DNA of 56,515 bases, from the NCBI GenBank assembly GCA_044222065.1, contig JBGAOA010000013.1, forward strand, positions 1 through 56,515, read 5' to 3'. Source of the DNA: Candidatus Eiseniibacteriota bacterium. GTDB taxonomy: Bacteria > Eisenbacteria > RBG-16-71-46. The notes under the pieces were generated by a model. It did not search any database and was not told the origin of the DNA. It saw only the letters and a program-made list of their open reading frames with translations. Positions 40,102 to 49,065 of the stretch are shown piece after piece. The number at the start of each line of letters is the position of its first letter. Within the stretch, counting starts at the first letter, position 1. The translations under genes were made by a program, and so were the position numbers.

Positions 40102-43014
40102 TCAGCGCACGCGCACCACCGTGCGCGTTCGTTCGATCGCGCCGGCCTGGAGCCGCAGCCAGTACGTGCCCGCGCGCGCCGCGTGCCCCGCGTCGTCGCG
40201 ACCGTCCCAGCTCGAGACGTGCGCACCCGCCGTCGCCGCGCCGCGCTCGAGCGTGCGCACGAGCCGGCCGCCGACGTCGTACACGGCGAGCGACGCCTCG
40301 CCGGCGACGGGCAGCGACCAGCGGATCGAGAGCGTTCCCGCGAACGGATTCGGTCCCGCGGCGAGCGACAGCGCGGCCGGTGTGGCGGTCGGCACGTCGG
40401 TCGTGGACGGCACGGCGAGCAGCCGCAGGTCGTCCACGCCGGCTTCGACGAGCGAGCCCGCGCCGTAGTCCGACGCGCGGAAGCGCAGCTGCAGGTTCGC
40501 CGTCGGCGTCACGACGTCCGACACGAAGAACAGCGCGCGGCGCCATTCGCCCGCGCTCGACGTTTCCTCGAACACCGGCGTCCACGTCGTGCCGCCGTCG
40601 TTCGAGATCGCGACGTGGAACGTGTCACTCGCGGGCGCGCCGCCGAGGTCGTTGCGATACCAGTACCAGTATTCGATCAAGGGATCCGTCATTCCGGTCG
40701 CGTCGAACGACGAGCTGACGAGCGTGACGTGGCCGCCGTCCACGTCGTTCGTTCCGGCGGCCGCGCCCGCCGCGGCGTTGCCCGTGATCCAGCACTGGGC
40801 GCCCGCGGGCGAGTGGTCGTCCTCGGGCTGGCTCGCGTCGGATCCGACGTACGCGCCGACCGGATCGGAGCGCGTCCACGCGCCCGAGGTCGCGTTGTCC
40901 CCGGCGCCGCCCGCGATCCAGCCGGCGGTCGTTTCCATGTCGTTCGAGAACTGCGTCGCGAACGGGCCCGCGAGGAACAGGTGGTTGCCGCGGAACGGCG
41001 CGCCGTAGGGCTCGCCCGCCACGCCGCCGTAGACGTCGGTCGCGGTCAGGTAGTAGCGCACGATGCCGGTGAAGAGCGCGGGGAGGTTCGCCTGGTACTC
41101 GTCGGCGACGCCGGTCGGCGTCATCGCGATGCCCTGGAACGGACCGTTGTCCACCGAGTAGTGCAGCGTGACGCCGTTCGCGGCGAGCGCGCCGAACGGC
41201 CCCGAGTACTGCACGACGGCAGCGATGCGATAGGGGCCGTGATCCGGCGTATCCGACAGCGGGCCGTGCACGATCGTCGTGAAGAACCCGGTGCCGATCC
41301 CGTGGGCGTTGAACGCGGACACGATCTCGGCGAAGTGCGGCGTGCCGTTCGCGAGATTCGCGTCGTCGTCGTCCGCGACGAGCACTTCGACGAAGTACTC
41401 GTGCATCGCGACGCCATTGTCGAAGTCGTCGGGCGTGCCGTAGCGGCTGAAGTGCGCGAGCAGCCGCGTGGGCGCGAGGCCGATCGCCTCGCGCAGGTCC
41501 CACATCGCGCCGCCGACGATGAGGCCCGCGAAGTGCGCCTCGCCGTCGTCGTCGGGCCACGTGTTCGTGTTGTCCGTGTTGCGCAGCACGGTGCCGACGC
41601 CCGTGAAGCCGCGGCCGACGAGCGGCGTGTCGAGCAGCAGGCAGGCGTTGACGTCCGCCGTGCCCTCGTGGAGCGCGCCGTTGACCATGCCGAACGGCTG
41701 GCCGAGCGCGGCGTACAGCTGGTCGTTGATGCCGTGCCCGTACTCGTGGAACACGACGTCGGGCATCGAGGCCGTGTTCGGGCAGCCGCCGCCGGCGAGG
41801 TAGAAGTTGATGCCCGTGCCGTCCCAGAACGCGTTGCACACGTCGTTGATGTTCACCGCGCACGGCATCGAGTAGTCGAGCGCCGTCATCGCGGGATCGA
41901 GCCCCTTGATGTAGTCGTGCACGATGTTCACGCTCCGGAACGCGTCGCGCTCGGCGTCCTGCGAGTTCACGGTCGTCCACGTGAAGTTCGCCACGCCGGG
42001 ATCCGGCGTCACGCTCGACTGCGATGCGTCCGTGCCGTTCTGGCGGTTCACGTTCACGAACGGACCTTCGAGCCGCGCCGTGACGGTGGACGTGACGCCG
42101 GCCGCGAACGAGTAGAAGCCGCTCGCGTCCGTGACGGGGAACGAACCGCCGATCGTGAGCCACTGGTTCTTGAACGGCACGCTCGTGAGCGGGTCGGTCG
42201 GAAGGTCGGCGTGCACCTGGCCCGTGACGGTGCCGGTGATCGCGTGGCGCACGCGGTCGAAGCGCAGACGCACCTCGCCGGTCGCGGCGTCCACGAGCGT
42301 CACCCAGCGCGCGGGCGGATCCTGCGTCACGATCTCGACGGTCGCGACGGGCCGCAGCACGACGCCGTTCTCGGTCCGCACCGGCAGCAGCGCGAGTTCG
42401 CCCGCGCCCGAGGCGTCGTCGGTCGCGGGATCGAAGCGCAGGCCGTTCGTCGCGGCGGCGCGCAGCACGCTCGCCGCGAGCTTCGGCGCGGTGAGCGCCT
42501 CGGCCGGCACGTCGCGCATCGCGTCGGCGCCGAACGCGACGAGCGCGCCGTTCGCGCCGACGCGGAACTCCCAGTCGGCGAACAGCACGGGCAGCCCGTT
42601 CACTCGCTCGCGGAAGCGCACGTACCAGGTCTCCCGCGCGCGCACGGCGGAGACGAGTTCGAGGTCGGGCGCGCCGAACAGGCCGGGCTCGGACGCGACG
42701 AATGCGCGCACGGCGCCCTCGACCGAGGCGGCGTCGTTCGCGGCCCCGGGCAGCGCGAACGAGGGCCCGAACGCGCGGTGCGGCGTGCCGGTGGCACGAT
42801 CCCACATCACGCTCCAGCGCCCGTGGCGTGACTCGAAAGACGCCCAGGCGGCGGCGCGCGCCGCGGGAACGCGCGCGTCCATCGAAGCCGTGTTGAGGCT
42901 CGCGAGCGGGACGGCGCCGGGCGCGACGGCGGCCGGTGTGACGAGCGCGCGGGCGGAAGCGGGCAGCAGCGCGGCGGCCAGGAGCAGGGTGAGCAAGGGG
43001 CGTGTGCGAGGCAT
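40102..43014 (-). CDS. Secreted M4/M36-like zinc metallopeptidase with propeptide and C-terminal FlgD/T9SS-like domain
   Basis: Signal peptide, FTP/PepSY-like region, NAFWDG, DVVFHEYGH, GALHEGTAD, C-terminal PNPF...YDVGGRLVRTL...WDGRDD. Confidence 0.88.
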   Translation of the reverse strand: MPRTRPLLTLLLAAALLPASARALVTPAAVAPGAVPLASLNTASMDARVPAARAAAWASFESRHGRWSVMWDRATGTPHRAFGPSFALPGAANDAASVEGAVRAFVASEPGLFGAPDLELVSAVRARETWYVRFRERVNGLPVLFADWEFRVGANGALVAFGADAMRDVPAEALTAPKLAASVLRAAATNGLRFDPATDDASGAGELALLPVRTENGVVLRPVATVEIVTQDPPARWVTLVDAATGEVRLRFDRVRHAITGTVTGQVHADLPTDPLTSVPFKNQWLTIGGSFPVTDASGFYSFAAGVTSTVTARLEGPFVNVNRQNGTDASQSSVTPDPGVANFTWTTVNSQDAERDAFRSVNIVHDYIKGLDPAMTALDYSMPCAVNINDVCNAFWDGTGINFYLAGGGCPNTASMPDVVFHEYGHGINDQLYAALGQPFGMVNGALHEGTADVNACLLLDTPLVGRGFTGVGTVLRNTDNTNTWPDDDGEAHFAGLIVGGAMWDLREAIGLAPTRLLAHFSRYGTPDDFDNGVAMHEYFVEVLVADDDDANLANGTPHFAEIVSAFNAHGIGTGFFTTIVHGPLSDTPDHGPYRIAAVVQYSGPFGALAANGVTLHYSVDNGPFQGIAMTPTGVADEYQANLPALFTGIVRYYLTATDVYGGVAGEPYGAPFRGNHLFLAGPFATQFSNDMETTAGWIAGGAGDNATSGAWTRSDPVGAYVGSDASQPEDDHSPAGAQCWITGNAAAGAAAGTNDVDGGHVTLVSSSFDATGMTDPLIEYWYWYRNDLGGAPASDTFHVAISNDGGTTWTPVFEETSSAGEWRRALFFVSDVVTPTANLQLRFRASDYGAGSLVEAGVDDLRLLAVPSTTDVPTATPAALSLAAGPNPFAGTLSIRWSLPVAGEASLAVYDVGGRLVRTLERGAATAGAHVSSWDGRDDAGHAARAGTYWLRLQAGAIERTRTVVRVR

Positions 43015-43185
43015 GGGCGTCTCCGGGGGTGCGGGTCCGTGCGGCGTTGCGGGGGATTGTTCCCGGCGCGACGGCGTCCTCGCAAGCGGGAAAGCGCGGG
43101 CGGCCGCGCGGTGACGCCGGGCGGAGCGATTCGATGGAACATCGCGGCGCTCGTCACGCCGCCGGTTGCCGCGACCGCGGCCCGC

Positions 43186-43378
43186 CCTGGCCCGGCGTAT
43201 TCGTGGGCGATCGGCCTACCAGGCGTCGGCCCCGCGTCCTCCGCAGCGTCGCCGCCCAGCACCGAGAGCCTCGACGTGTCTCCGACACGCCCTGCGGCCC
43301 GGAAGCGGGCGGCCTCTACGGCGGCTGCCGCGGTGCCACCGCCTTCGGCTCGACGTTCACCGAATACGCCGGGCTGGG
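43186..43378. repeat. About 190-nt imperfect palindrome (MITE/REPIN-like element or structured RNA)
   Basis: Terminal IR gcccggcgtattcg/cgaatacgccgggc, nested complementary blocks, central hairpin cgtgtc-tcc-gacacg at the midpoint. Confidence 0.65.
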
Positions 43379-43405
43379 AATTTCGCCCACTTCCGGAGGC
43401 ACTCG

Positions 43406-44103
43406 ATGTCCGACTCCCGGGACGCGCGCCGCCGTGCCGCACGGCGCACGCCGGGTCGCTCGCTCTGCTTCGCCGCGTTCCTGTCGCTCGTGCTCGCCGC
43501 GGCACCGGCGCGCGCCCGCGCCCAGATCCACCCGCGCCGAGCGAGCGTCAGTTCCTCCAGCTCGCCCACTGGATCTCGGGCTCCTACAGCAGCGCGGCGC
43601 AGGCCGCGCGCGACACGAGCTATCGCGACGTGCAACTGCACGTCACGCCGATCTGGACCGAGCGCGGCGAGGGTTACCGCTGGTACTACCTCGAGCAGGC
43701 GCTCGCGAGCGCCCCGGCGCGCCCGTTCCGCCAGCGCGTGTACCGGATGAGCGACCTCGCCGACGGCACGTTCCTGTGCGTCGTCTACGCGCTGCCGCGC
43801 CCGCAGCGCTTCGCGGGCGAATGGCGCGCCGAGCTGCCGCTCGTCCGGCTCTCGCCCGACTCGCTGCTCGAGCGCGAGGGCTGCGAGCTGATCTTCCGGC
43901 GCTCGGCCGACGGCAGCTTCGCCGGAGCGACGCGCGAACGGCGCTGCCCGAGCGAGCTGCGCGGCGCGAAGTGGACGACGTCCGAGGCGGTCGTCACGCG
44001 CGAGCGGCTGCTCTCGCTCGAGCGCGGCTACGACTCGACCGGCGTGCAGGTGTGGGGCCCGACGAAGGGCGCCTACGAGTTCCTGCGCGTCCGCGACCGC
44101 TGA
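43406..44103 (+). CDS. CpcT/CpeT-family lyase-like secreted protein with one apparent frameshift near 43530
   Basis: GGAGG+ATG 43406 with signal peptide in one frame; GSYSS.AQA, Y.EQA, PFRQRVY, GC.L, ERGYD..G.QVWG in another. Confidence 0.75.
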
Positions 44104-44116
44104 CGGCGGCGCACGC

Positions 44117-45292
44117 TCAGTCCTCGATCGTCGCGAGTCCGGCGAGCGTGACGCGCGCGACCTCGCGCGCGAGACGTTCGCGAGGCACGCCGGACGCGCC
44201 CGCGAGCCGCGCGAGCGGCGTGCGGCGCAGCGCCGCCTCGACGACCGCGATGCTGGTCAGGTCGGCGTCGAGCACGCGGCGTTCGGGTCCGTGCACGAGC
44301 AGCGGCCGCTCGCCGCGCAGCACGCCGACGTGCGCGGGTTCCGCGACGAGTCGGCCGCGGCCCGAGTCGAGGCGCGACTCGACTTCGCGCGTGACGCGCT
44401 CGAAGTCCTCGACGGTCGCGCGCGGCGAGCCGCCGGCCTCGCGCCACAGCACATACGGCGCGATCCACGAGCCCCACTGCTCGGGCTCGCGCTTCACGCG
44501 CGTCTCGAACCACGCCCACAGCGCGCGCGTCGCTGCGGCGAGCCCGTCGGCGTCGTCCCGGTCCGGCGGCGCGATCGGATCGCCGTAGACGATGCCGCGC
44601 TTGCCGAGTCCCGCGCGATAGGCGAGCGCGGGCACGATCGGCACGCGAGCCGCGGCGGCGAACCACGCGGGGCTCGTCCGCACGCGCAGCGGCACGCCGA
44701 GGAAGTCCACATCGGCCGAGTGGTGCTCGCGGTCGCGCGCGCCGCCCGCCACGCTCATGCCGTCGGCGTAGATCGTGACCGCGCCGCCGCCCTTGAGCGC
44801 CGCGAGCGCGCGGCGGACGTCGGCCGCGCTGCGCGCGATCAGCCCTTCGTAGCGGATGCCGCCGCGCGCAGACGTTCGCGTGAAGTCCTCGCCCGAGAGC
44901 CCGGCGAGGTCGTCGAGCATGAGCGCCTTCACGTCCACGCCGAAGTGCGCCGTCTCCCACGGCACGAAGTAGAGCGGGCCGTAGTGCAGCGAGCCGACGA
45001 CGAATCCCTGTTTCGCGTCGCGCAGCCGCTCGACCACGGCGCCGCCCACGACCTCGTCCACGCGCTGGCCGGCGAGCAGGTCGAGCCGGTCGAGAGCGCC
45101 GAGCGCGAAGCTGCGCTGCACGCGCGCGGCGAGCGCGCGGAGCTGGTCGGGCGTCATCGTGCGGCCGAACGCCGACGACACGCTGATCGGCAGCATGCGG
45201 AACTGCTCGGCGTAGGCCGAGCGCTCGATGCCCTTCGAGAACCGCGCGCCGAGCAGGTGGACCGCACTGCGCGCGGCGAGCACGACGTTCAT
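44117..45292 (-). CDS. LpxL/HtrB-like (LPLAT) acyltransferase with putative C-terminal RRE/winged-helix domain
   Basis: SLHYG, TIYADG, VDFLG...PAWFA..ARVPIVP, VKREPEQW.SW; extra about 85-aa tail with a strands-then-helices pattern ending LAGLATIE. Confidence 0.78.
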   Translation of the reverse strand: MNVVLAARSAVHLLGARFSKGIERSAYAEQFRMLPISVSSAFGRTMTPDQLRALAARVQRSFALGALDRLDLLAGQRVDEVVGGAVVERLRDAKQGFVVGSLHYGPLYFVPWETAHFGVDVKALMLDDLAGLSGEDFTRTSARGGIRYEGLIARSAADVRRALAALKGGGAVTIYADGMSVAGGARDREHHSADVDFLGVPLRVRTSPAWFAAAARVPIVPALAYRAGLGKRGIVYGDPIAPPDRDDADGLAAATRALWAWFETRVKREPEQWGSWIAPYVLWREAGGSPRATVEDFERVTREVESRLDSGRGRLVAEPAHVGVLRGERPLLVHGPERRVLDADLTSIAVVEAALRRTPLARLAGASGVPRERLAREVARVTLAGLATIED

Positions 45293-46323
45293 CGCGCGCC
45301 CCGCAGTTCGCGCAGGACCGCGGGGCCGACGACTCCGAGCGCGAGCCACGCGGTGAGCGCGAGGTGGGCGAGTAGCGCGACGGCGTAGATCGCGCTCGCG
45401 CGCCCGGGCGGCGCCTGCGGCGCCGCGTCGCGGCCGCGCAGCCGGCCGAGCCAGCGCTCGCCGAGGCCGCGCACGCCGAGCGCGTCGGCGAGCAGCCAGT
45501 GGCCGTCGAATCCCGGGAGCGGGCTCAGGTTCGAGAACGCGCTCGCCGCGACGAGCAGCGCCGCGCGCATCCACGCGTCGCTGCCGGTCGCGGCGTGCAG
45601 CGCGCCCGCGGCGCCGGCGAGCAGGAGCTGCACGTACACGCCGCCGAGGTCCACCGCGATCCGGCCCCGGCGATCGAGCAGCGCCGAGCGGCGCACGTCC
45701 GCGTAGAGCACCGGCGAGAGCCCGACGAGGCGGAACCCCACGGCGCCCGGCGTCTCGCCGTGGCGGACGAGCGCCGCGGCGTGCCCGAGTTCGTGCGCGA
45801 ACACCGAGACGAGCAGCGCGCCGAGAGCGGGCCACCAGGCGGGCGAGAGCCAGTGCCGCTCGCCGCTCACGAGTCCCGCCGCGCTCGCGAGCGCGGGCGC
45901 GAGACCCGCGAGCGCGAGCACCGCGAGCCCGATCGCGACGCCCGGGGCGTGGAGCGGTGCGAGAGCGCGCGCGAGCGGCAGGACCGCGCGGGGCGGAAGC
46001 AGCTCGAGACGCGCGCCCGCGGGCGGCGGAGCCTCGGACACGCGCACGGGCGGCGTCGCGTCGGGGACGCCGACGAGCCCGATCGGCCACAGCACCTCGC
46101 GCAGCGCGCGCTCGACGGCGGCGCCGTCCACCGGGCGCCCCGAATCGCGCGAGTACGCGAGCGCGATCGCATCCGCGTCGCGCCGGCCGTCCACGAGGGC
46201 GAGCAGCCGCGCGGCTTCCTCGCTGAGGTGGAAGACGCGATCGGGCGGCAGCGTCACGGTGACCTGACGCTCCGCCCGATCTTCGAACCGGATTCGCACG
46301 CCGGTGACGGCGGTCGGAATCAT
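45289..46323 (-). CDS. PqqD/RRE-like domain fused to M50 (site-2 protease) metallopeptidase
   Basis: N-terminal FHLSEEAARLLALVDGRRDADAIA...LWPIGLV; HELGH zinc motif, PVLYADV, GGVYVQ, NLSPLPGFDG; GGAG RBS before ATG 46323. Confidence 0.85.
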   Translation of the reverse strand: MIPTAVTGVRIRFEDRAERQVTVTLPPDRVFHLSEEAARLLALVDGRRDADAIALAYSRDSGRPVDGAAVERALREVLWPIGLVGVPDATPPVRVSEAPPPAGARLELLPPRAVLPLARALAPLHAPGVAIGLAVLALAGLAPALASAAGLVSGERHWLSPAWWPALGALLVSVFAHELGHAAALVRHGETPGAVGFRLVGLSPVLYADVRRSALLDRRGRIAVDLGGVYVQLLLAGAAGALHAATGSDAWMRAALLVAASAFSNLSPLPGFDGHWLLADALGVRGLGERWLGRLRGRDAAPQAPPGRASAIYAVALLAHLALTAWLALGVVGPAVLRELRGAR

Positions 46324-46397
46324 CCGGTGCTCCTGCGGGGTCGCGCGGGGATCCACGGCGAAAGCCGGCGGGCCGGTGCGCGTCCGCGGAAGTGTCG

Positions 46398-46550
46398 TCA
46401 GGCCTTGATGGTCCCGAACGAGTAGTAGATGAGGTAGATGACTTCGCCGAGGAAGCTCGTCGAGTCCACCGACAGCTCGCGGCGCTCGGTCAGCTCGCGG
46501 GCGGAGACCGCCGGGAACAGTTCGACCTCGTCGTGACGCAGGTTCTGCAC
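46398..46550 (-). CDS. Putative RiPP precursor A3: MQNLRHDEVELFPAVSARELTERRELSVDSTSFLGEVIYLIYYSFGTIKA (50 aa)
   Basis: Manual translation; GTG start with AAAGGAG RBS; leader homologous to A1 and A2. Confidence 0.85.
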   Translation of the reverse strand: MQNLRHDEVELFPAVSARELTERRELSVDSTSFLGEVIYLIYYSFGTIKA

Positions 46551-46668
46551 GGGAAGCTCCTTTCGAACTCGCCCGCGGGAACGGGCGTGGGGGGCTCGGT
46601 CACGGGGCGGCCGTGGAATCCCGTGAACGCGGCGGGACGCTAGCAGAAGCGCCGTGCCGCCAGAAAGC

Positions 46669-46696
46669 GAAGGAGGCGGCTTTCGCCGCCTCCTTC
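46669..46696 (-). terminator. Strong hairpin after precursor A2
   Basis: Minus strand gaaggaggcggc-gaaa-gccgcctccttc then gctttct; perfect 12-bp stem. Confidence 0.7.
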
Positions 46697-46719
46697 ACGC
46701 GAAGATTTCGGGAACGAGC

Positions 46720-46854
46720 TCAGTCCCACCAGTAGAAGGACGCGTAGAACAGCTCCTCCAGGAACGACGAGTAGCCATGGAGTTCGCGACGCTCTTCCAT
46801 CTCGTGGACTTCCACCGCGCGGAACAGCTCGACCTGCTCGGTCTGCTTCAGCAT
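46720..46854 (-). CDS. Putative RiPP precursor A2: MLKQTEQVELFRAVEVHEMEERRELHGYSSFLEELFYASFYWWD (44 aa)
   Basis: Manual translation; AAGGAGG RBS; shared leader. Confidence 0.88.
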   Translation of the reverse strand: MLKQTEQVELFRAVEVHEMEERRELHGYSSFLEELFYASFYWWD

Positions 46855-46932
46855 CCCTGGAATCCTCCTTGATTCGCGGGCGAGCGGCCCGCCTGGTTGG
46901 GGAGTGGTGCCTGAAGGGGTCTGGTTCGCCGG

Positions 46933-47076
46933 CTAGGCGCTCGGCTTTCCGAAACCGTAGGAGGCCTTGATCAGCGCGAGGATGAACGAATAGCCGCGCA
47001 GGTCGCGAGCTTCCTCCAGCTCCTTCACATCCACGGCCCGGAACAACTCGATCGACTTCTGATCATCGTGCTGCAT
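46933..47076 (-). CDS. Putative RiPP precursor A1: MQHDDQKSIELFRAVDVKELEEARDLRGYSFILALIKASYGFGKPSA (47 aa)
   Basis: Manual translation; AGGAGG RBS; shared leader. Confidence 0.88.
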   Translation of the reverse strand: MQHDDQKSIELFRAVDVKELEEARDLRGYSFILALIKASYGFGKPSA

Positions 47077-47224
47077 CTCAGCCTCCTGTCGGTCGTGTAA
47101 GCCGGAACGTGAGTGGGCACGTGCGCGAATCGCGCGGCGGACAATTTACAAAAACGCGCGGCGGTGTCCAGCCTGAAACGCTCCCCGGCCCCGGCAGGCC
47201 GTTTGGCTCGTGTATGGTGTCGGC

Positions 47225-47944
47225 ATGGCCACGCCCTGGGATCACCTCCTTGCCGCGGTGCTCGTGGTCGGTCTTCCGTTGCGTGCGGTCTGGCTCTTCC
47301 GGCGGCTCGCGAACTCCCCGTCCCAGGACCGCGCCGCCGTCCGGAAACGCCTCTATCTACAGGCGATGGCCATGCAGTGGACGCTGGTGGCCGGGCTCGC
47401 CGCCCTGTGGCTCGCGACCGGCCGTCCGTGGGGCTCGCTCGGCCTCGTGCCGCGGGCGAACGGGGGGTTCTGGGGCGTCCTCCTCGGCCTGCTGTTCGTG
47501 ACGCCGCTGCTGTTCCGGCGACTCCGGTCGCTCGATGCCGCGACGGTCGCGGCGGCCCGGGCGTCGTTCGCCCCGGTCGAGTCGCTCCTGCCCCGGACCG
47601 TCCCCGAGCGGAACCTGTTCTACGCGCTCTCGGTCACGGCCGGCTGCTGCGAGGAACTGCTCTACCGGGGGTTCCTGATCGACTACTTCGGGCGCTGGAC
47701 GGGAACGCTCCAGGCGATGCTGCTCGTCGCGGTGCTGTTCGGGGTCGGGCACGCCTACCAGGGCCTTTCGGGCGTGCTCAAGACCGGCATCGTCGGCGCG
47801 TTCCTCGGCACCGCCTATCTGCTCACGGGATCGCTGCTCTTGCCCGTGATCGTGCACGCGCTCATGGACGTCTACGCCGGAACGCTCGCGCACCGCGTGC
47901 TCACGTTCGAACCCGCGCCTGCCGCCGTGGAGCGCACCGCGTGA
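47225..47944 (+). CDS. CPBP (CAAX/Abi) intramembrane glutamic endopeptidase
   Basis: EELLYRG, FGVGHAYQG, H.LMD motifs; TM helices; TATGGT hexamer shortly before the ATG (possible leaderless transcript). Confidence 0.9.
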   Translation: MATPWDHLLAAVLVVGLPLRAVWLFRRLANSPSQDRAAVRKRLYLQAMAMQWTLVAGLAALWLATGRPWGSLGLVPRANGGFWGVLLGLLFVTPLLFRRLRSLDAATVAAARASFAPVESLLPRTVPERNLFYALSVTAGCCEELLYRGFLIDYFGRWTGTLQAMLLVAVLFGVGHAYQGLSGVLKTGIVGAFLGTAYLLTGSLLLPVIVHALMDVYAGTLAHRVLTFEPAPAAVERTA

Positions 47945-49065
47945 GCGCCCGATTCGACGTCGCGATCGCCGGGCTCGGCGCGATGGGCGCCGCCGCCGCG
48001 TACCATCTCGCGCGCCGGGGCCTGCGCGTCGTGGGCTTCGACCGCTTCGCCCCGCCGCACGCGCTCGGTTCGTCGCACGGCGAGACGCGCATCATCCGCG
48101 AGGCCTACTTCGAGGATCCGCGCTACGTGCCGATCGTGCAGCGCGCGCTCGCGGCGTGGCGCGAACTCGAACACGACGCCGGCCGGCCGCTGCTCGTCGA
48201 GACCGGCGGACTCATGCTCGGGCCGCCCGGCGGCGAACTCGTGCGCGGCGCGAAGGCGAGCGCCGATGCGCACGGGCTGCCGTACGAGCTGCTCGAGGCC
48301 GCGCGCGTGCGCAAGCGCTTCCCGGCGATGGCGCCGCGAGAGGACTGGGTCGGCGTGTGGGAGCCGCGCGCGGGCGTGCTGTTCCCCGAGGCGTGCGTCG
48401 CGGCGCACCTCGAGGCCGCGCGCCGGGCGGGCGCCGAGCTGCGCACCGACGAGCCGGTCGAGCGCTGGAGCGAAGACGGCGCGGGGGTCCAAGTCGAGAC
48501 CGCGCGCGGCCGCGTGTCGGCGGGATCCCTCGTGCTCGCCGCCGGCGCGTGGCTTCCGGCGCTGCTCGACGGTCTCGAGCTGCGACTCGAGGTCGCGCGG
48601 CAGCCGCTCGTGTGGTTCGAGCCCGCGCCGCCCGTCGAGCGTTTCGCGCCCGAGCGCTTCCCGGTCTGGATCTGCGAGCACGAGGCGGGGCGCTACCTCT
48701 ACGGGTTCCCGGCCTTCGGCGGCCGGCTCAAGGCCGCGATCCACGGCGAGGGCGAGGTCGGGCCGATCGACGCGCTCGACCGCGGCCCGCGCGCCTCGGA
48801 CGTGAGCCTGCTCGCCGCGCCGCTCGAGCGGCTGCTGCCGGGCTCGACCGCGCGCGCTCTCGAGACGGCGGTGTGCTGCTACACGAACACGCTCGACCGC
48901 CACTTCGCGATCGGCCCGCATCCCGCCCACGCGAACGTGTTCGTCGTGAGCGCGTGCTCGGGCCACGGGTTCAAGTTCGCGAGCGCGATCGGCGAGGTCG
49001 TGTCGCGCCTCGTCGCGGGCGAACCCGCGGGCTTCGACCTCGAGCTGTTCCGCATCGGGCGCTGA
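47941..49065 (+). CDS. solA: N-methyl-L-tryptophan oxidase / monomeric sarcosine oxidase-like FAD enzyme
   Basis: GLGAMG, GSSHGETRIIREAY.E, CCYTNT.D..F, CSGHGFKF. Confidence 0.85.
   Translation: MSARFDVAIAGLGAMGAAAAYHLARRGLRVVGFDRFAPPHALGSSHGETRIIREAYFEDPRYVPIVQRALAAWRELEHDAGRPLLVETGGLMLGPPGGELVRGAKASADAHGLPYELLEAARVRKRFPAMAPREDWVGVWEPRAGVLFPEACVAAHLEAARRAGAELRTDEPVERWSEDGAGVQVETARGRVSAGSLVLAAGAWLPALLDGLELRLEVARQPLVWFEPAPPVERFAPERFPVWICEHEAGRYLYGFPAFGGRLKAAIHGEGEVGPIDALDRGPRASDVSLLAAPLERLLPGSTARALETAVCCYTNTLDRHFAIGPHPAHANVFVVSACSGHGFKFASAIGEVVSRLVAGEPAGFDLELFRIGR

Follow-up and report, generated by a model that had tools for sequence, protein, structure and literature searches.

On a 56,515-nucleotide contig of a Candidatus Eiseniibacteriota bacterium (JBGAOA010000013.1, assembly GCA_044222065.1; the whole stretch, positions 1 to 56,515, is called the window below), a compact minus-strand operon encodes three short homologous peptides, an intramembrane metalloprotease and an acyltransferase (AT). 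A preliminary description of this DNA, made from the sequence alone, had proposed it as a cluster for a lipidated peptide made on ribosomes and modified after translation (RiPP), with enzymes recruited to a leader peptide through a RiPP recognition element (RRE). The order on the minus strand is A1, A2 and A3, then the protease gene, then the AT gene, and this arrangement of peptide, protease and AT genes is as first described. The genes and their domains are as follows.

46933-47076, minus: A1, precursor peptide of 47 aa; its leader contains the IELFRAVDVKELEE motif, and its core is aromatic and hydrophobic
46720-46854, minus: A2, 44 aa, homologue of A1
46398-46550, minus: A3, 50 aa, GTG start, homologue of A1
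45289-46356, minus: RRE-fused intramembrane site-2 (M50) metalloprotease, 355 aa
46054-46329, minus: predicted RRE of the protease, approximately residues 10-101
45781-45795, minus: HExxH motif of the protease, residues 188-192
44117-45292, minus: acyltransferase of the LpxM/PatA fold, 391 aa, carrying an RRE-like domain at its C-terminus
44423-45205, minus: AT domain, approximately residues 30-290
44120-44359, minus: RRE-like domain of the AT, residues 312-391

The three short open reading frames (ORFs) that had been placed on the same strand upstream of the protease gene are all present. A2 is 48% and A3 40% identical to A1, and the three share 12 invariant columns, among them E-L-F, A-V and S-F. 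Each start is preceded at 5-9 nt by a Shine-Dalgarno site (GGAGG for A1, GGAGG for A2 and GGAG for A3). No Pfam or NCBIfam match was obtained with A1-A3 (44-50 aa) at E <= 1, which agrees with the earlier judgement that the leader is not of the Nif11 or NHLP type. An alignment of 26 peptides, from the window and 14 of the related loci described below, uncovered a common leader followed by a hypervariable core. The leader has the consensus M-x(3-8)-VELFxAxxVEEIxxR, the E-L of VELF being invariant in all 26 peptides, and contains 20% Glu and 9.5% Arg; the core is 23% Ser, 14% Tyr, 12% Gly, 5% Cys, 3% Trp, 3% Lys and 1% Arg. More precursor-like ORFs were seen in the related loci L031, L041, L042, L047 and L050. 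Short encoded precursors in which the leader is conserved and the core varies, lying beside enzymes, are what is looked for in a RiPP locus, and they were found here. When the whole genome of the organism was scanned, no further precursors and no second cluster were found beyond these three peptides.

The protease had been read as a PqqD/RRE-M50 fusion, and the structure prediction bears this out. Its AlphaFold (AF2) model (predicted local distance difference test, pLDDT, 83.5; predicted template modelling score, pTM, 0.74) shows an RRE fold at the N-terminus, built of three strands and three helices, followed by a membrane part that matches RseP (7w6z, Z 8.7), MjS2P (3b4r, 8.5) and SpoIVFB (8.2). 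In an alignment of 10 protease sequences, H188, E189 and H192 of the HExxH motif are invariant, as are D284, G285, D56 and G57; D284 and G285 belong to an NLxPxxxxDG-type motif, and the motifs that characterize site-2 proteases are present. At the sequence level, the protease gave a weak PqqD match, a match to Pfam Peptidase_M50 just under the cut-off (25.1 bits; cut-off 27.2) and, as its best curated match, NCBIfam daptide_HExxH (NF041824; E 9.8e-27, 94.1 bits, cut-off 300). An alternative start is possible at the ATG at 46323, with GGAG ahead of it. Strong RRE-M50 homologues (E ~1e-47) were also seen in two genomes without an AT orthologue (G001:C10:6616-7608 and G002:C12:101704-102672), where they may be part of another peptide pathway using the same kind of protease.

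The AT gene, whose ATG overlaps the protease stop codon as ATGA, had been described as LpxL-like. Its product passes the Pfam model Lip_A_acyltrans (PF03279; 31.2 bits, cut-off 22.3) with residues 151-277 only, and its AF2 model (pLDDT 87.5, pTM 0.85) has the fold of LpxM and PatA. Foldseek returned LpxM at E 6.4e-12 and PatA at ~1e-11 to 1e-10, and VIA-align superposed the model on LpxM 5knk (Z 23.3, root-mean-square deviation (rmsd) 3.7 over 266 residues) and on PatA 7ojt (Z 22.9, rmsd 2.8 over 235 residues). A profile of 16 AT orthologues also retrieves LpxM and PatA among solved structures, and in it H103 aligns with the His of the LpxM HFGTWE motif. H103, G105, P106 and D177 are invariant in these 16 orthologues, and H103 and D177 are invariant also in 15 distant AT-RRE proteins that are ~20% identical. 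Elsewhere in the genome there are three canonical Lip_A_acyltrans genes (172, 150 and 92 bits; the AT scored 31.6 bits in the same scan). The divergent fourth copy is therefore not the housekeeping lipid A enzyme, and the idea that the AT is the sole lipid A late acyltransferase was rejected.

A word-indexed homologue search with the AT returned only the AT itself and one weak match. The exhaustive profile search of 1.84 billion representative proteins returned 61 proteins at E <= 1e-30, 1,936 at <= 1e-10 and 8,816 at <= 1e-3. Those relatives that were looked up in this library are unnamed or labelled only "lauroyl/myristoyl acyltransferase", and the ESM Atlas gave generic clusters of that name only. 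Eight top library matches have lengths of 675-836 aa and align to the AT with their C-terminal half, and the two whose sequences were inspected (P0003 and P0018) are RRE-M50-AT-RRE fusions. We also noted two proteins, P0027 (854 aa) and P0035 (829 aa), in which the whole AT-RRE unit is tandemly duplicated; P0035 comes from a lower-GC organism and its source label is just "lauroyl/myristoyl acyltransferase".

Two features had not been noticed before: the AT has an RRE-like domain of its own at the C-terminus, and protease and AT occur naturally as a single fused protein. In the AT model, residues 312-391 make up a unit of their own, built of strands and three helices. The structural matches of protease residues 10-101 (TigE Z 9.0, MibB 8.7, lasso B1 8.7, TbiB1 8.6 and PqqD 7.5) and of AT residues 312-391 (TigE Z 7.8, MccB 7.5, MibB 7.4, CteB 7.3 with an rmsd of 1.6, TbiB1 6.9, lasso B1 6.6, PqqD 6.5 and the PbtF RRE 6.2) lie at Z 6-9, a range common for small domains, and the RRE assignment is made because RiPP RREs are enriched in the match lists, not because of any single Z. 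The protease list also contains the RREs of CteB, MccB, LynD, TbtB and PbtF, and the AT list LynD, NisB, ThcOx, TbtB, TglHI and McbBCD. On these models, both units look like leader-binding RREs. The search for an RRE fold that the preliminary description had suggested was thus positive for the protease (Z up to 9.0), and the operon is RiPP-like as proposed, joining precursors to enzymes with predicted RREs.

Full-length AT orthologues (E < 1e-30) were found in 19 of the 206 genomes of the phylum, the organism's own included, and are spread over three families; one more genome has an AT cut by a contig end and another an AT in three pieces. We took 20 related loci with flanks of up to 7 kb per side, less at contig ends, and excluded from the precursor count L034 and L044, which stop at a contig edge just upstream. 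The other suggested check, for leader peptides adjacent to homologous enzymes elsewhere, gave a clear answer: 1-3 precursor-like ORFs stand directly upstream of the AT gene, or of the protease-AT pair, at 18/18 readable loci. The gene arrangement is not due to chance, because all of these loci show peptide and AT together, and this comparison across genomes makes the first observation considerably stronger. The protease is encoded by a separate gene in five related loci, as in the window, and is fused in frame to the AT (RRE-M50-AT-RRE) in 8/20 loci, namely L037, L040, L043 and L046, where the fusion is complete (684-686 aa), and L036, L039, L044 and L045. A strong M50 orthologue (E < 1e-40) is present in 15 of the 19 AT-positive genomes versus 3 of the 187 others, one of these 3 being a genome with an AT cut by a contig end; the counts come from related genomes and are not independent observations. 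At L050 (G011:C30:39914-41030), the AT lies in three pieces in different frames with a precursor-like ORF still upstream, which points to gene decay or else to a fault in the assembly.

With a narrower alignment, built from distant AT-RRE proteins, as the query, 22 loci were uncovered, and by record titles the AT-RRE enzyme logic is found in at least four further groups (Acidobacteriota, Bacteroidota, Krumholzibacteriia and Fibrobacteraceae). The acidobacterial loci L053-L056, from metagenome-assembled genomes (MAGs), each hold a pair of AT-RRE genes together with an enzyme of the arginase/agmatinase family (PF00491, E ~1e-54 to 1e-63), the cluster spanning 1174-9225 in L053. Three of the four PF00491 enzymes have a long N-terminal extension, and the L056 gene begins at a contig end. 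The known peptide arginases belong, to our knowledge, to another family (OspR type), and a peptide arginase of the PF00491 fold would therefore be new. L053-L055 have in addition an RRE-M50 gene and a precursor whose leader is related (LFEELxVxELEDRLEL) and whose core begins with R-C-x-C-R; neither a precursor nor an M50 gene was detected in L056, where the upstream flank is shorter. A fatty-acyl-AMP-ligase-like (FAAL-like) AMP-binding enzyme is present in L053, L054 and L056, and L055 has in its place two MbnB/TglH/ChrH-family RiPP enzymes and a PqqD-domain protein. This FAAL link and the established RiPP enzymes of the sister clusters are the strongest indirect support for fatty-acylation of the peptides. 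A membrane protein encoded between the two AT genes of L053 was considered as CPBP-like, and this was dropped as the protein gave no Pfam or NCBIfam match.

In a Chitinophagaceae MAG (L065), a peptide with VEKLEERLEM is encoded together with an RRE-M50 gene and an AT; a gene for a lantibiotic dehydratase N-terminal domain follows ~3 kb further downstream, past an outer-membrane barrel gene. A Krumholzibacteriia MAG (L071) has a peptide with IQELQERLEF immediately ahead of the AT. In Runella, Ferruginibacter and Hymenobacter (L057, L061, L062 and L064), the AT homologue comes after a small ORF, which in two Runella species shares FGDKDPxASCxGI. These Runella, Ferruginibacter and Hymenobacter homologues adjoin LytTR-type regulators, with a histidine kinase as well in L061 and L064 (Ferruginibacter and Hymenobacter), a context that hints at a peptide-signal or bacteriocin-regulation setting. 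AT homologues beside small ORFs are found also in cultured strains of Runella, Hymenobacter and Parapedobacter.

We consider it probable, with the reservations given below, that the operon stands for a new class of RiPP, with core acylation by an enzyme of the LpxM/PatA fold and leader removal by a site-2 protease, each of the two fused to an RRE. This analysis establishes which genes and folds are present, that catalytic-type residues and synteny are conserved, that the fusions occur naturally and that RNA libraries contain the peptide genes; beyond this, we infer the peptide as the acyl acceptor and, with it, the acylated residue, the acyl group, the order of steps and the role of the product. 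The AT would recruit the leader through its C-terminal RRE, and His103, probably helped by Asp177, would act as general base while a fatty acyl group from the cellular acyl-ACP (acyl carrier protein) or acyl-coenzyme A (CoA) pool is moved onto the core. The acceptor would most likely be a Ser or Tyr hydroxyl, since O-acylation of Ser or Tyr fits both the family chemistry and the core composition; the new N-terminus is the alternative. Afterwards, the RRE-fused site-2 protease would cut off the leader on the cytoplasmic side of the membrane, and the end product would be a lipopeptide in or at the membrane. The more far-reaching proposal stands, in our judgement, evenly between acceptance and rejection: that this is the founding member of a RiPP class in which an LPLAT-superfamily AT with a fused RRE O-acylates Ser or Tyr using fatty acids of primary metabolism, coupled and sometimes fused to an intramembrane leader peptidase, which would place both lipidation and leader removal at the membrane, with the same logic in at least four other phyla.

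Several observations weigh against the acylation proposal. The acid at position +5 of the HX4(D/E) motif, the residue mutated in the LpxM E127A structure 5knk, is absent in the AT orthologues, which have Tyr, His or Phe instead. In PatA, according to the available text of PMC8519569, His126 is the general base and is assisted by Glu200, 74 residues on. By comparison with this Glu200, D177 may stand in for the missing acid, as it has the same 74-residue spacing from the His, although the two are unaligned. The Pfam match of the AT is limited to its C-terminal half, its scores against all NCBIfam equivalogs are 12-20 bits (cut-offs 209-384), and the Z scores of the RRE-like units are, as said, of a common size. 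Clustering of the locus genes brought out no acyl-activating enzyme or carrier protein in the window cluster and the 20 related loci, and a dedicated exporter was not found in them either. The RNA-library contigs discussed next may include DNA and show neither strand nor level. Lastly, an M50 gene is absent from the fetched flank (7 kb) in 6/20 loci, and three of the five such genomes tested have no M50 at E <= 1e-5 (completeness 65, 93 and 83%). In the two other tested genomes, the protease gene is elsewhere, beside a CPBP gene. The no-M50 loci mean that the protease is not obligatory; the invariable core of the system is the peptide with the AT-RRE.

The two genomes with a relocated protease gene belong to one genus. 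Their RRE-M50 genes (G103:C68:5036-6076 and G104:C19:184714-185901, loci L075 and L076) lie ~1.6 kb from the CPBP gene, and the peptide and AT pair lies on another contig, the pathway being split over two loci. No precursors were found around the relocated genes.

Two candidate signals were found in the upstream part of the operon.

47143-47170, minus: promoter-like site (TGGACA, 16 nt, TAAATT), a sigma-70-like match upstream of A1
46667-46698, minus: 14-bp perfect GC-rich hairpin with a GAAA loop, immediately past the A2 stop

The promoter scan of 43900-48100 returned one site versus 0.1 expected in shuffles. The 83-nt stretch with the hairpin has a minimum free energy of -40.3 kcal/mol (z = -3.25), and 0/200 shuffles fold equally well; the terminator scan did not call the hairpin at 46667-46698, where a T run is absent. 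It is possibly an attenuator or an RNA-stabilising element that separates A1-A2 from A3 and the enzyme genes.

Read with the limit given above, contigs of four metatranscriptome libraries (three studies) were compared with the window. A1-A2 are covered without mismatch (0 mismatches) in 3/4 runs (two studies). In X15 and X17, from one study, a contig at a depth of ~15 is identical to 46698-47124/6 and spans A1 and A2, with one end just past the promoter-like site and the other at the hairpin's first base. The depth in X17 is 15.8 upstream of the hairpin versus 2.8 downstream (46343-46683), and this downstream contig covers A3 with 0 mismatches, the one run in which A3 is covered. X19, from another study, covers 46830-47119 at depths of 14-61. 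Parts of both enzyme genes are present in 4/4 runs (three studies) at depths of 2-5 with 0 mismatches; contig depths rank poorly, and the uncovered stretches of the enzyme genes are no sign of silence. The contig starts at 47119-47126, seen in two studies, are a weak hint of a transcript start, and the depths are an equally weak hint of a short, abundant A1-A2 transcript. For the stretch 44117-47100, 60-94% of the sampled words are found in activated-sludge, wastewater and biofilm metagenomes of nine studies besides the possible source, and the organism recurs in engineered water systems. From this recurrence in sludge and wastewater metagenomes, together with the peptide genes in sludge RNA libraries, it follows that the product is probably made in nature.

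One further gene had been counted as part of the cluster.

47210-47944, plus: CPBP (Rce1-like) intramembrane protease, Pfam E 1.1e-20, divergent neighbour of the operon

The gene is there and divergent as described. Its membership in the cluster did not hold up: CPBP homologues (E <= 1e-20) are found in 79 of the 89 genomes of the bacterial family versus 14 with an AT orthologue, and with this family-wide distribution CPBP was rejected as a dedicated cluster gene. Seven related loci (L037, L038, L039, L040, L043, L045 and L046) have a gene of the two-HKD PLD family next to the operon, in two different arrangements; in L038 it overlaps the AT stop. This gene was likewise rejected as cluster-specific, as it is single-copy in 74/89 genomes of the family and lies on a different contig in the organism's own genome (C12:17968-19200). 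A divergent PLD-CPBP pair also stands in genomes without an AT, for example G113, G114, G088, G122, G116 and G128. CPBP and PLD are probably conserved neighbours of the operon site and not dedicated cluster genes, though either may have a role in the pathway. The operon is repeatedly placed at the PLD/CPBP site.

The remaining flanking genes, by Pfam, encode a CpeT-family protein, an M4-like protease, a DAO oxidoreductase, an MFS/TLC-like transporter and a metallophosphoesterase, and look unconnected to the operon. The M4-like (thermolysin-type) protease is a secreted protein of 970 aa with a C-terminal FlgD_ig domain (40102-43014, minus). The ORF of the CpeT/CpcT-family protein (43039-44103, plus) has an N-terminal extension of ~170 aa, which may be an over-long open frame given the 72% GC of the genome.

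Could the AT modify the peptides without a fatty acid? The acyl group that it transfers might be short or unusual (acetyl, aminoacyl or hydroxyacyl), or the AT might carry out an intramolecular ester/amide exchange, such as macrolactone formation via Ser or Tyr, and the product would then be modified and unlipidated. Cross-links are conceivable in cores this rich in Ser, Tyr, Cys and Asp, window-type clusters have no fatty-acid-activating gene, and with the HX4(D/E) acid gone and the N-terminal half of the AT domain diverged, the acyl pocket may differ from that of LpxM and PatA. We find this unlikely, however, as the closest AT folds (Z 23) are long-chain acyltransferases, FAAL-like enzymes lie beside AT-RRE genes in 3/4 acidobacterial loci, and no ATP-dependent enzyme that would activate a peptide carboxylate is present.

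The acceptor might also be a membrane lipid or glycolipid. The site-2 protease would then release an unmodified bacteriocin or signal, the AT would serve self-protection or a change of the envelope, and its winged-helix domain would be regulatory or peptide-sensing. This alternative, which we hold to be quite unlikely, draws on the precedent of the AT family in lipid and glycolipid acylation (from the titles of PDB entries and, for PatA, the available text of PMC8519569) and on the conserved PLD-type, phospholipid-enzyme-like gene that adjoins the operon in seven related loci. The PLD gene is, however, single-copy in 74/89 family genomes with or without the cluster, and lipid A already has three canonical acyltransferase genes elsewhere in the genome. 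The C-terminal domain of the AT resembles leader-binding RREs, and it is the AT, and not the protease, that is the constant neighbour of the peptides (18/18 loci, six of them without an adjacent protease); both points count against a lipid acceptor.

We regard as very unlikely an inert AT-like protein serving as a leader-binding scaffold or chaperone that passes unmodified peptides (pheromones or bacteriocins) to the protease, since, although the canonical +5 acid is absent, Bacteroidota relatives lie beside LytTR two-component systems (a hint of signalling) and a non-catalytic RRE partner has a precedent in the daptide DUF-RRE protein MpaB, which delivers the peptide to MpaC (available text of bioRxiv 10.1101/2023.03.08.531785), the invariance of His103, Gly105, Pro106 and Asp177 in orthologues, and of His103 and Asp177 even at ~20% identity, is hard to explain without catalysis, and the tandem AT-RRE duplications (P0027 and P0035) and paired AT genes of the sister clusters suggest several catalytic events.

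The preliminary description had raised the possibility of an undescribed class, and we found no published or curated description of one like it: the top-ranked full-text results contained no such system, and no model of NCBIfam release 20 is passed by any of these proteins or peptides. The supplementary family lists of the daptide and RRE-Finder studies may name related RRE-protease groups. If the proposed acylation of the core by the AT is correct, ribosomal lipopeptides would have a second enzyme family, unrelated to GNAT, as a GNAT acyltransferase is present in every ribosomal lipopeptide pathway that we found in print, and RiPP chemistry would be widened, possibly by fatty acids in ester linkage to Ser or Tyr. 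Designer lipopeptides could then also be made by a gene-encoded route of two enzymes. The natural protease-AT fusions are a model for coupling modification with intramembrane leader removal. The family is small yet spread over several phyla, and its cultured relatives make experiments feasible.

Among known systems, daptides resemble the window operon in having several short precursors, an RRE at the N-terminus of a leader-removing intramembrane site-2 protease, another RRE carried by a tailoring partner and a leader motif that is acidic and contains ELE (as described in the available text of bioRxiv 10.1101/2023.03.08.531785). The window protease, at 94.1 bits against the MpaP-type equivalog cut-off of 300, is however a relative and not an equivalog. 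The leader differs (VELFxAxxVEEIxxR versus ELExMEAP in the available text of the same preprint), and the window cores end in Ala, Asp and Ala, whereas those of daptides, as given there, end in an invariant Thr. No gene for MpaB (DUF-RRE), the MpaC dehydrogenase, the MpaD aminotransferase or the MpaM methyltransferase is adjacent in the window, where the tailoring enzyme is instead an acyltransferase of the LpxM/PatA fold.

Selidamides, lipolanthines, goadvionins and lipoavitides are alike in concept, as a dedicated transferase fatty-acylates a ribosomal peptide, which would also be the case here. The acidobacterial sister clusters, in pairing an arginine-to-ornithine-type enzyme family with acyltransferases, are similar in principle to selidamides. 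The preliminary description had named LPLAT-family enzymes as the selidamide acylators, and this has to be corrected: the available text of PMC8784127 speaks of GNAT (38 mentions) and never of LPLAT or LpxL, and the available part of the lipoavitide preprint groups the lipolanthine, goadvionin, selidamide and lipoavitide fatty acyltransferases as GNAT. The enzyme of the window has instead the LPLAT-superfamily fold (PF03279) together with a predicted RRE. The window precursors, unlike those of selidamides, are short and not of the NHLP or Nif11 type, and the window is without lanthionine or avionin machinery.

With LpxL, LpxM and PatA, the AT shares its fold and the conserved His at the catalytic position. 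It differs from them in lacking the +5 acid of HX4(D/E) and in its extra C-terminal RRE-like domain, and its gene shares an operon with peptide genes and the gene of a leader peptidase, to which it is fused in some loci.

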